A DNA stretch of 64,000 nt from assembly GCA_947630965.1 (NCBI GenBank), contig CANRJO010000004.1:3143-67142 (forward strand), read 5' to 3'. The stretch is from an uncultured Alphaproteobacteria bacterium. GTDB lineage: Bacteria > Pseudomonadota > Alphaproteobacteria > RF32 > CAG-239. The position numbers and the translations under genes were made by a program. Shown piece after piece: positions 59,967-61,868 of this stretch; the first letter of the stretch is position 1; every line of letters starts with the position of its first letter. The notes beneath the pieces are model-generated. The model was given only the letters and a program-made list of their open reading frames with translations. It was not told the DNA's origin and did not search any database.

Positions 59967-60100
59967 GGGAACGCGTCTAATGGGCGCCTAGAGCAATTTA
60001 AGGGGCAAAAGTGTCCTCACGTACGCTTTTTAGTACGCTGCGGTACTTTTGCCCCTTAAATCACTCCAATCGCCTCATTATCCGCGTTCCCTCGGGTTGG
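59967..60100. repeat. Left ~130-bp inverted-repeat element flanking the fic cassette (contains an internal 11-bp-stem hairpin ggggcaaaagt...acttttgcccc)
   Basis: Ends gggaacgcgtctaatgggcg and cgcctcattatccgcgttccc are the reverse complement of 61849-61868 and 61748-61772. Confidence 0.7.
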
Positions 60101-60125
60101 GTGTAAAAGGGTGCAACAGCCTGCT

Positions 60126-60220
60126 GACGTCATCCTGAACGCAGTGAAGGATCCAGGACAAAAAAGTAGCTATATCTTTCCACCTGGATTCTTCACCCCT
60201 AAAGGGGTTCAGAGTGACGT
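60126..60220. repeat. Palindromic ~95-bp REP/MITE-like element, direct copy 1 (acgtcatcctgaac...ggatccagga...cctggattc...acccctaaaggggt...gttcagagtgacgt)
   Basis: Repeated in the same orientation at 61517-61632 with a 24-bp insertion carrying a ggcgccatt duplication. Confidence 0.7.
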
Positions 60221-60240
60221 AAAATGTGGGGTTCGGCAGA

Positions 60241-61389
60241 TTACATATTTTTTCTAAGTAAGGAAATATATGCCGTATAGGCATAAACTTGCCCCCATTT
60301 TTTTTCGGATATGTTTGCCAAAATTCCCATATTAATCAGGCGCCGAAGCATATTAATAATGGTCGGGCGAGAAAGTTTGGCTTGTTTTTCAATTTCTGCC
60401 ACAGTTAAAAGGGGCTTTTTTTCAAACTGTTCTAATACAATTTGCGCTGATTTTTTTGCTTTTCCAAGGGTTTTAAGCTTTGCTTCATCATCTGCAAACA
60501 GTTTTTGAACAAGAATGATGGTTTTTCGAGCGTCATCAGCAGTTTTACAAACGCCTTCCAAGAAAAAGGCAATCCATTTTTCCCAATCGCCCTGTAAGCG
60601 CACTTGATTAAGGTGTTCATAATAAAGCGTACGATGTTGTTTGAAGTAAACGCTTAAGTAAAGCAAAGGCGATTTGAGCAACCCTTTCACATAAAGAAAC
60701 AGCGTTATCAAAAGTCTGCCCATACGACCGTTGCCATCAAGAAAGGGGTGTATGGTTTCAAACTGGACATGGATAAGCGCCACTTTAATCAAAACAGGAA
60801 TTTGATCATCCGCGTGCATAAATTTTTCCAACGCACTCAAAGCGTCCATAAGTTTTTCTTGAGGACAAGGAACAAAGCGAGCGTTTCCGGGGCGCGTGCC
60901 GCCAATCCAGTTTTGTGATGTCCGAAATTCACCAGGGCGTTTTGTCTTTCCACGAGCGTTTGCAACCAAAATGGCGTGCATTTCTCTAATCAGCCGCAAT
61001 GAGAGCGGAAACCCCTCATTGATGCGTTTTATGCCGTGGTTTAAGGCGGCAACATAAGACGAAACTTCCGCCACATCTTCCAAAGGAACGCCTTGTGTTT
61101 GTAAGGATTCGTATTTCAACAGGTCGTCAAGGGTAGATTGCGTTCCCTCAATTTGAGAGGAAAGGACAGCTTCCTTGCGAACATACATATAATTTATGAG
61201 CGCCGCGTCCGGAATGGTTGAGATCACACCGTTTAAGGCGCCGATAGCTTCAGTGGTTTGCTCCAAAAGGTTGCCAAGTGCGCTAATCTCAATCATCGGT
61301 TTTGGCGGTAAATCATACGGCACAAAAGCTTTATAAGCCTCTGATGTTACGGAACAATTTATAAAATCGCCTTGAGGACCTCTTTCCAT
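60241..61389 (-). CDS. fic: Fic-family protein (Fic_N + FIC domain with HPFLDGNGRMGRLL active-site motif + C-terminal winged-helix DNA-binding domain)
   Basis: 382 aa; canonical HPFx(D/E)GNGR motif; C-terminal SRPTIINMLRRLINMGIL wHTH. Confidence 0.85.
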   Translation of the reverse strand: MERGPQGDFINCSVTSEAYKAFVPYDLPPKPMIEISALGNLLEQTTEAIGALNGVISTIPDAALINYMYVRKEAVLSSQIEGTQSTLDDLLKYESLQTQGVPLEDVAEVSSYVAALNHGIKRINEGFPLSLRLIREMHAILVANARGKTKRPGEFRTSQNWIGGTRPGNARFVPCPQEKLMDALSALEKFMHADDQIPVLIKVALIHVQFETIHPFLDGNGRMGRLLITLFLYVKGLLKSPLLYLSVYFKQHRTLYYEHLNQVRLQGDWEKWIAFFLEGVCKTADDARKTIILVQKLFADDEAKLKTLGKAKKSAQIVLEQFEKKPLLTVAEIEKQAKLSRPTIINMLRRLINMGILANISEKKWGQVYAYTAYISLLRKNM

Positions 61390-61439
61390 ATTTTCTCACA
61401 AACTTAAAATTATACCTCTTTCTAAGATAGGCGGGAAAG

Positions 61440-61515
61440 TTTAATTTTTTACTAAGAAAGTTAAAGTTGGCGCCTTAACTTTAACTTTCTTCGCGAGAAA
61501 GTTAAAGTTGAGCAA
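61440..61515. promoter_or_regulatory. Operator-like array upstream of fic: three copies of GAAAGTTAAAGTT, two of them forming a 15-bp inverted repeat around GGCGCC
   Basis: aagaaagttaaagtt-GGCGCC-tt-aactttaactttctt plus a third direct copy 8 bp downstream. Confidence 0.45.
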
Positions 61516-61516
61516 C

Positions 61517-61632
61517 CCGCCTCCATCCGTCATCCTGAGCTTTGGCGCCATTGGCGCCATTCGCGAAGGATCCAGGACAATAATATAGCTTTATTTTTCC
61601 ACCTGGATTCTTCACCCCCTAAAGGGGTTCAG
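61517..61632. repeat. Palindromic REP/MITE-like element, direct copy 2
   Basis: See copy 1. Confidence 0.7.
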
Positions 61633-61739
61633 AATGACGTACAGCGGCTGTCGAACTATAGCAATTTAAAGGTACCTTTAAATTGCACCACAAAAAAACA
61701 CCCCGCGGGGCGTTTTTTTATATCGAATCCTTATTTCCT

Positions 61740-61868
61740 CATAGCCCTCGGGAATGCGGATAATGAGGCGAGTAGAAGTGAGAAAAGAGGATTTGGAATT
61801 TTAGCGTACATAAAAGTACGTGAATTTCAAATCCTCTTTTTGAACGATTAATCGCCCATTAGACGCGT
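61740..61868. repeat. Right ~130-bp inverted-repeat element flanking the fic cassette (internal hairpin aagaggatttgaaattc...gaattttaaatcctctt)
   Basis: Reverse complement of its ends matches 59967-59986 and 60074-60098. Confidence 0.7.

Follow-up and report, generated by a model that had tools for sequence, protein, structure and literature searches.

Does a single Fic gene enclosed by two long hairpins, whose outer ends are reverse complements of each other, form one mobile unit with these hairpins? The arrangement lies at positions 59967–61868 of a 64,000-nt stretch of DNA (the window), which belongs to contig CANRJO010000004.1 of the genome assembly GCA_947630965.1 from an uncultured Alphaproteobacteria bacterium. 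An initial sequence-only reading took this segment for a non-autonomous mobile cassette with ~130-bp inverted repeats as its termini. Our data largely refute the cassette reading. It seems likely that the apparent bracket is an effect of gene orientation and not the boundary of a transposable unit, and that the Fic gene was acquired independently between two convergent genes, each followed by its own copy of a repeat that we call family A.

The repeats proposed for this segment are all present, with coordinates 1–4 nt away from those first given. The motif GGGAACGCGTCTAATGGGCG was found without mismatch at 59967–59986 on the + strand and at 61853–61872 on the − strand (previously placed at 61849), and GGGAAYGCGGATAATGAGGCG at 61750–61770 (+) and, with one mismatch, at 60071–60091 (−). 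For both motifs, shuffled sequences are expected to give 0.00 matches. The reverse-complementary ends, identical over 20–21 nt, are real. They belong to two elements, A_L (59964–60098, core 59967–60091, + strand) and A_R (61743–61875, core 61750–61872, − strand), which were delimited by folding, by repeat scans and with the covariance model R1 that we built for family A. When folded as DNA, each element forms one long hairpin, as had been proposed, with −41.6 kcal/mol (z −8.9) for A_L and −28.0 kcal/mol (z −6.2) for A_R. R1 scores A_L with 113.9 bits on the + strand versus 48 bits on the − strand, and A_R with 52.6 bits on the − strand versus 32.4 bits on the + strand. With its filters switched off, the model finds exactly these two copies in the window, and motif scans also showed no further occurrence of the four repeat motifs within the 64 kb. 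The match between the two brackets holds for the outer ~20 nt and fails in the interiors. A_L carries a long apex (TCCTCACGTAC..GTACGCTGCGGTAC at 60014–60046) and A_R a short one. Because the apex subtypes differ and the elements are only ~71% alike, A_L and A_R are not two copies of one bounding element. Furthermore, no target-site duplication surrounds the 1.9-kb unit: the left flank reads ...TCTAAATAT before GGGAAC and the right flank GTTCCC before AGTTCTATT (...AAATAT before GGG versus CCC before AGTTCT), and no in-register direct repeat of at least 2 nt flanks the unit.

When 185,579 species-representative genomes were scanned with a pattern for both ends of the element, one other copy was found, in the metagenome-assembled genome (MAG) GCA_947588655.1, a sister MAG from uncultured Alphaproteobacteria. 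This copy adjoins the atp operon and has no Fic gene nearby. Its first 33 nt are those of A_L and its last 19 nt those of A_R, and its inner stem differs in sequence with the pairing kept. Comparison of this copy with the window copies exposed a conserved apex. Scanning metagenome contigs with the apex pattern TCCTCAYGTAC-N4-9-GTACRCTGCGGTAC gave 103 loci from human-gut and environmental samples, corresponding to 52 distinct copies, and R1 detected 60 strong copies from 50 sources in the loci that were fetched (numbered L001 onwards). The consensus hairpin of alignment A2, which comprises 36 distinct copies, has 38 pairs, and compensatory double changes were observed in 26 of them. In A2, 94.6% of the cells are paired, versus 39–49% when the partner column is slid, and double changes occur in 251 cells, versus 33–78 in the slid controls. 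None of 500 shuffles reached the observed values. Nine apical pairs are invariant, and one apical pair shows a clean switch from C-G to U-A. Across the family, the 31-nt apex at the centre does not vary, in contrast to the termini, which covary and are not the same in all subfamilies. The identical 20-nt ends of the window copies are a signature of the local subfamily, and the sister MAG has the same ends at another locus.

Members of family A were found on contigs of 33% to 67% GC. Several of the metagenome loci are syntenic with the 4–17 kb part of the window, with 50–80% amino-acid identity, and so belong to the same alphaproteobacterial clade. A third copy of the same strain lies at L005:1082–1218 (−, 77 bits) at the 3′ end of a PPDK gene, ~4.2 kb past the right window end, on a contig that is 100% identical to window positions 61832–64000. 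The sister MAG carries two further copies near a tRNA gene (L008). TA is present at both boundaries in about two thirds of the inspected copies. Many family members have AAAA.../...TTTT outer stems, which would make them terminators. No T-run follows the window copies, which end in ...CGCGTTCCC, so that they lack this mark of an intrinsic terminator; a separate canonical terminator lies beyond A_R at 61692–61719. One copy (L073:2991–3124) resembles the L029 type in its 5′ half and the L023 type in its 3′ half and is either a recombinant of two copies or an assembly chimera. Contigs L005 and L006 end ~40 nt into A_R, and L001 ends inside the A_L hairpin at window position 60047; family-A hairpins appear to fragment short-read assemblies. 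The family is apparently undescribed. None of the 4227 covariance models of Rfam 15 matched the window at the gathering threshold, and at E ≤ 10 only generic hairpin matches, far below threshold and without relevance, were obtained. A blastn search with the family consensus against plasmid and phage collections gave no match, the exact 5′-end motif had 0 matches in JGI metagenomes and viral contigs, and a full-text literature search for the apex strings returned unrelated primers only.

The placement of family A relative to genes offers an explanation for the bracket. In the reading direction of the element, 39 of 44 distinct copies share their strand with the upstream neighbour (binomial estimate p ~7e-8, with some copies being orthologous and so not fully independent), whereas downstream neighbours are divided between the same strand (17 cases) and the opposite strand (14 cases). 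Among the 32 copies with a real upstream open reading frame (ORF), 17 have its stop codon 49–57 nt before the apex, so that it abuts the outer stem at its first base. Stop codons also form smaller clusters at 37–39 nt and 27–29 nt before the apex, where the ORF enters the element and ends at stop triplets of the conserved 5′ boxes. Loci with several A copies almost always have them in direct orientation, following the genes, and the fetched loci showed no other case of a single gene enclosed by an inverted A pair. The positions occupied include the 23S-5S rRNA spacer (L090:4294–4425, equal to L123:10221–10352), where a sense copy lies 25 nt past the 23S 3′ end on a contig of ~52% GC, with an apex identical to that of gut copies. 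Other copies separate rbfA from a DHH-family gene in an infB-rbfA-truB cluster, lie between uvrC and the gene after it and, in antisense, between atpA and atpG. In three species, the element follows the stop codon of an orthologous gene for a protein of ~624 aa, with the outer stems AAAAAACTCG/CGAGTTTTT, AAAACTCG/CGAGTTTT and AAAAGTTCG/CGAACTTTT. Since these stems have diverged in a compensatory manner, the hairpin has been maintained in place over time.

Two further loci allow copies to be compared with element-free sequence. The junction between the ORFs g970 (11063–13975, 970 aa) and g1138 (13923–17339, 1138 aa) carries no element in the window (13960–13980), and the same junction is filled with 1.5 tandem copies in L079 (595–810) and L120 (6533–6651). 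This comparison, a single case, shows no clean TA duplication. Here the 5′ arm of the outer stem consists of the last five codons of the host gene plus its stop, and the 3′ arm is complementary to them. In L005, a TAG within the element terminates the PPDK ORF, whose orthologue in L011 has no element and ends differently (AKKK* versus KRA*). In L079/L120 as well as in L005, the last codons of the host itself form the 5′ arm and the 3′ arm is nevertheless complementary to them, a puzzling combination.

Both window copies conform to this pattern, as each lies 4 nt past the stop codon of its own flanking gene in sense orientation. The left flanking gene (55535–59962, +) encodes a Cys-rich, autotransporter-like protein of 1475 aa ending in ...GVKYKF, whose stop codon TAA occupies 59960–59962; A_L begins 4 nt later. 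The right flanking gene (61877–63292, −) encodes a MATE efflux transporter of 471 aa and ends in TAG, and on the − strand A_R starts 4 nt after it. Since the two genes converge and each has its gene-end element in sense, the A pair is necessarily inverted. Assuming this explanation, the 1.9-kb segment would be the space between the convergent autotransporter (+) and MATE (−) genes, each provided at its end with one copy of a ~130-nt hairpin that is found across the clade. A self-contained Fic module, comprising an autoregulatory triple-box operator and the ORF, would have been acquired independently between these copies. It may have arrived by horizontal transfer into a variable spot.

The properties of the Fic gene (60241–61389, −, 382 aa) agree with such a module. 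Both the ORF list and Pfam bear out the earlier statement that this is the only gene inside the segment: between the brackets (~1.9 kb), it is the sole credible ORF. Also borne out is the domain order Fic_N-FIC-winged helix-turn-helix (wHTH) with the active site HPFLDGNGR. Pfam detected Fic_N, Fic and a weak HTH (HTH_5), and the motif HPFLDGNGRMGR is present in the translation. Class II Fic proteins, which are auto-inhibited AMPylases, have an N-terminal inhibitory helix motif (S/T)xxxE(G/N) and a Fic motif HxFx(D/E)GNGRxxR. The peptide SSQIEG, read in the translation within the Fic_N region, fits the inhibitory motif. The PADLOC model for SoFic matched residues 18–379 of 382 with an E-value of 2.7e-119, and the PDB entries 3EQX/3ZCN of SoFic matched residues 47–380 with E ~1e-35. 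Judged by these matches, the gene is of the SoFic type, a known kind of defence gene. SoFic has been described as an AMPylating abortive-infection toxin with an anti-phage role (PMC12249575), and by homology the window protein would be an AMPylating abortive-infection or anti-phage toxin. For SoFic of E. coli, an antitoxin named AS1 has been reported downstream (PMC12249575). The sole candidate for an AS1-like antitoxin gene in the window, an ORF at 60078–60284, is a read-through of the palindrome B1 described below and was rejected, and no co-directional small gene was called downstream of the Fic homologues elsewhere.

Fic homologues are extremely numerous and occur in many phyla. The nearest ones, with 72–76% identity, are found in unrelated contexts. 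One identical SoFic-type protein (P0141, L013–L016) occurs in at least three contexts, beside paired large serine recombinases, DNA methylases, HipA_C and KAP NTPases, and resembles cargo located at the margins of integrative elements or defence islands. Close relatives of the window Fic also adjoin restriction-modification genes. Upstream of the gene, a putative promoter/operator region (61390–61512, −) was identified by repeat scan and in alignment A3. Two of its three CTTTAACTTTCT boxes form an inverted pair, and the boxes are conserved upstream of Fic homologues in unrelated genomes. From this conservation we infer autoregulation by the wHTH, the boxes being the likely operator for the protein's own DNA-binding domain. 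DNA homology with other Fic loci is limited to the triple-box operator and the ORF, from ~61512 to the stop codon, and neither A nor B is found in the fetched loci of Fic homologues. The mobile unit is therefore the Fic module including its operator and not the bracketed segment.

The surroundings of the locus in relatives also point to an accessory gene at a variable site. MATE orthologues with 83–84% identity are followed, before psd/pssA, by nothing (L011) or by two genes (L008), with neither a Fic gene nor an A element downstream of MATE in these two loci. Since their content differs, the spot downstream of MATE is variable. The two genes of the sister MAG (L008:4616–5625) encode proteins of 50 aa and 277 aa without a Pfam match on record. 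Four contigs encode the identical Fic protein (L001–L004), all at the same locus and representing two strain types. In the second type (L002–L004), the repeat mosaic differs on both sides: A_R stops after 65 nt and is followed by other sequence, extra B copies are present, and an A′ variant with the ends GGAAAGGCG/CGCCTTTCC lies near the autotransporter. No clean empty site was obtained via the MATE orthologues, whose neighbours differ (psd/pssA), or via the autotransporter, whose exact protein is not on record; its best homologue (58% identity, L126) has another context and a plain terminator without A. A database look-up of the VirB11-like neighbour likewise found no record. Of the mobility proposed for the Fic gene, the accessory nature of the DNA, its variable position and its close relatives in unrelated contexts hold, and the cassette ends do not.

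That the A elements are the terminal inverted repeats (TIRs) of a composite, non-autonomous element bounded by miniature inverted-repeat transposable elements (MITEs) and mobilised by a transposase encoded elsewhere was the model of the sequence-only reading. The outer ends do form a perfect 21-nt inverted repeat, the elements are multi-copy, and the TA boundaries are reminiscent of MITEs that duplicate TA. However, the missing target-site duplication and the different subtypes of the two copies speak against this model. In addition, a family with an invariant centre and variable termini is the opposite of what transposase-bound TIRs would show, and each copy occupies a normal single-copy position in sense just past a stop codon. 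The same 20-nt end occurs at an unrelated locus of the sister MAG that has no Fic gene, Fic homologues elsewhere lack A and B, and other A pairs are almost always direct. The contigs with the identical Fic gene gave no second location for the unit. Pfam scans of the larger window ORFs revealed no transposase; the only integrase among the ORFs scanned is of the XerC/D type and lies among housekeeping genes. The sequence-only reading had itself named, as an observation that would count against it, an occurrence of the elements as ordinary high-copy intergenic repeats that are not associated with cargo, and the observations on family A come close to this. We consider the MITE-bounded cassette very unlikely. 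Slightly less probable still is a segment that arose by inverted duplication of the junction between the MATE tail and A, and that could invert the Fic gene. This would account for the identical outer ends and for a 44-nt patch resembling the MATE tail beside the A copy on the autotransporter side of L002. Yet Fic has the same orientation in every contig (L001, L002) that connects it with MATE or with the tail of the autotransporter gene, A_L in the window lacks the patch next to a native autotransporter C-terminus, and no invertase was found among the window ORFs scanned with Pfam. In a third explanation, homologous or illegitimate recombination would act on the A and B palindromes arrayed downstream of MATE and would have captured the Fic module between them; the repeats would then matter for gain and loss of the gene and not as transposon ends. 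The different content of the site in three related genomes (nothing, two genes or SoFic) and the different repeat mosaic of strains with the identical Fic gene, with truncated A_R, extra B copies and A′, are in line with such a hotspot. The direct repeats B1 and B2 near both ends of the Fic module could delete the gene, and the hybrid copy in L073 suggests recombination between copies. On the other hand, no donor/recipient pair and no empty site were recovered, and the repeats did not travel with the gene, as Fic homologues elsewhere are free of A and B. We regard a hotspot as unlikely. It is compatible with independent acquisition between convergent genes, the sole difference being the causal role of the repeats in the insertion.

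Several observations weigh against our preferred explanation that gene orientation produced the bracket. Within the 64 kb, family A is represented only by the two copies on either side of this 1.9-kb segment, a clustering for which our explanation does not account. The outermost 20–21 nt are identical despite the differing interiors, which suggests exchange between the two sides. B copies lie near both ends of the Fic module. The strongest hint of copying or recombination between the brackets comes from L002, where the 44-nt patch precedes A′ and replaces the last ~10 codons of the autotransporter gene, including the terminal Phe (L002:2449–2513, 2330–2464); since the coverage of this contig is 3x, the patch may be a chimera. 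Moreover, a site in which autotransporter, A and MATE follow each other without Fic was not found in the same species, whose genome is absent from the collection. Finally, G:T and A:C mismatches number 60 and 43 in the paired positions of family A, which is no clear RNA signature. Because these counts are not specific to RNA, it is the orientation bias that argues for action at the RNA level.

How family A might act can be narrowed down by its orientation. The window copies are 1.7 kb apart and opposite, so orientation follows the gene and not replication, which argues for an effect on or through the transcript. We infer that the element works on the 3′ end of the transcript or by way of it, in the role of a hairpin, processing site or protein-binding site. 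A hairpin at the DNA level, or upkeep of the palindrome by template switching, is a possible alternative. As a speculation that may well prove wrong, family A could be an unrecognised, widespread structured element, of RNA or single-stranded DNA, whose invariant 31-nt bulged apical helix UCCUCAYGUAC-loop-GUACRCUGCGGUAC binds a conserved factor. It would sit at the 3′ ends of transcription units, including the 23S-5S spacer and the atp and infB-rbfA intercistronic sites. Its mechanism of spread would be directed at ORF ends, giving stop codons in all three frames and an outer stem derived partly from the last codons of the host. The Fic locus would then hold two such elements, with copying between them (the L002 patch) caught in action.

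Comparison with known systems places family A as a new family of a known general kind, that of the ERIC/REP/Correia-like palindromic repeats. Enterobacterial repetitive intergenic consensus (ERIC) sequences, also named intergenic repeat units (IRU), are 127-bp imperfect palindromes in transcribed intergenic regions of Enterobacteria. Family A resembles them in size (~125–135 nt), in forming a single long imperfect hairpin, in copy number and in its position in transcribed intergenic DNA by ORF ends, including operons; TA is often found at both boundaries. Like MITEs of the ERIC or Correia type, it is an imperfect palindrome of ~100–150 nt that is multi-copy and intergenic. It differs from ERIC in having no evident sequence relationship, in its hosts, which are uncultured gut and environmental lineages resembling Alphaproteobacteria, in its invariant 31-nt apex and variable termini, in its strong sense bias and in supplying or abutting the stop codon. 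In Neisseria, minimal mobile elements lie between conserved genes that are rich in NIME/Correia repeats, and a recombination hotspot downstream of MATE would be similar to them. The locus described here is similar to Correia (CREE)/NIME/dRS3 arrays, with palindromes between conserved genes, strain mosaics (L002 versus the window) and accessory genes among the repeats. However, Correia elements have conserved TIRs, a TA duplication and both orientations, whereas in family A the centre is conserved. We know of no link between family A and DNA uptake or transformation. Repetitive extragenic palindromic (REP) sequences and bacterial interspersed mosaic elements (BIMEs) are likewise intergenic, structure-forming and associated with gene ends, with a possible role in mRNA 3′-end stability. 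REP units measure 20–40 nt and form clusters of inverted units, whereas family A is a single hairpin of ~130 nt, and no Y1 transposase (RAYT) gene was found among the window ORFs scanned with Pfam.

For the Fic gene, the closest likeness is to SoFic and class II Fic AMPylases, which extends to the full-length PADLOC match, the domain order and both peptide motifs. The similarity to crystallised SoFic is at class level (~30–40%, bit scores ~125), and no obvious AS1-like antitoxin gene lies downstream. The arrangement also recalls an integron cassette, in which a single, seemingly promoterless gene lies by a structured imperfect palindrome (attC) of ~60–140 nt with unpaired bases. An attC site was rejected for the A elements: they lack GTTRRRY/RYYYAAC core sites, have the ends GGGAACGCG.../...CGCGTTCCC and lie in inverted instead of direct orientation, and a promoter/operator belongs to Fic itself. 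The window showed no integron integrase, its sole tyrosine recombinase being the XerC/D-type gene at 8086–8988. As in the Bep effectors of Bartonella, a Fic domain is encoded beside a VirB-like type IV secretion system (T4SS), and the sequence-only reading had raised the idea of a T4SS substrate. Unlike Bep proteins, which end in a BID domain plus a positively charged tail, the window Fic has no C-terminal BID domain detectable by Pfam scan, its C-terminus is a wHTH, and its family occurs in many phyla without a T4SS. A full-length SoFic-type protein for which Pfam gives only Fic_N, Fic and a weak HTH does not support that idea.

The remaining features of the segment were mapped by repeat scan and folding. 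The inner palindromes of ~100 bp in direct orientation were confirmed as B1 (60127–60220, +, ACGTCATCCTGAAC ... GTTCAGAGTGACGT, fold z −4.8) and B2 (61528–61639, +, fold z −5.5). They are 87–96% identical over the shared 62 + 26 nt. B1 ends ~20 nt from the Fic stop codon, and B2, which has an extra internal GC hairpin, lies at most ~15 nt from the boundary of the Fic operator. A search of ~850 kb of fetched loci for the B family gave a single fragment (L005:332–357), and a scan of viral contigs with the B core gave 0 matches. Two smaller structures are also present. A perfect hairpin (GCAATTTAAAGGTACCTTTAAATTGC, 61661–61686) has an arm similar to the A_L inner stem, and 61692–61719 is a bidirectional intrinsic terminator (AAAAAAACACCCCGCGGGGCGTTTTTTT), which on the − strand lies downstream of MATE and A_R and would serve MATE. 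These two features and the triple-box region had not been noticed before. On the − strand, the order from MATE is TAG, 4 nt, A_R, the terminator, the small hairpin, B2, the box region (~120 nt) and Fic, followed by B1, antisense A_L, 4 nt and the stop codon of the convergent autotransporter-like gene. The 68-aa ORF at 60078–60284 (−) overlaps the 3′ end of Fic and reads through B1 into A_L. Metagenome gene callers annotate it on the Fic contigs, in versions of 68 aa and 97 aa on L001 and L002 and truncated on L003 and L004. Its place is that of the AS1 antitoxin reported for E. coli SoFic (PMC12249575), but the ORF is probably spurious.

Further away, the window contains a type IVb pilus cluster (17400–32100) with a PilS-like pilin, PilO, a secretin, TcpQ and two T2SSE ATPases. 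It lies beside the VirB-like T4SS (32784–55413), which comprises VirB4, VirB8 and VirB11-like genes and several ORFs of 1262–1437 aa. The 1475-aa protein next to it (55535–59962) consists of dozens of Cys-rich EGF-like repeats (CxxGxxxxxxC...) with an autotransporter-like C-terminus. The Pfam Autotransporter domain is present in homologues of this C-terminus, and its 419 aa have only 6 matches in 5.8 billion proteins. At the other end of the window (30–4362, −), a duplicated leader and 5′ end are common to five small paralogous genes with W-rich repeats (3510–3570 is almost identical to 4316–4380). In the sister MAG (L007), the place of these five paralogues is that of the family-A copy and other palindromes.

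As a cassette, the segment has little significance, being a defence gene of known type in a variable intergenic spot, with its symmetry as a by-product. It illustrates that hairpins at gene ends create false terminal inverted repeats around anything that lies between convergent genes. Family A itself is noteworthy, being large and strongly covarying, with no counterpart in Rfam or in the plasmid and phage collections that were searched. Action at the DNA level would make it a palindromic repeat that targets ORF ends in an unusual way, and action at the level of the transcript would make it a candidate for a new 3′-end RNA motif in a poorly studied clade of gut Alphaproteobacteria.

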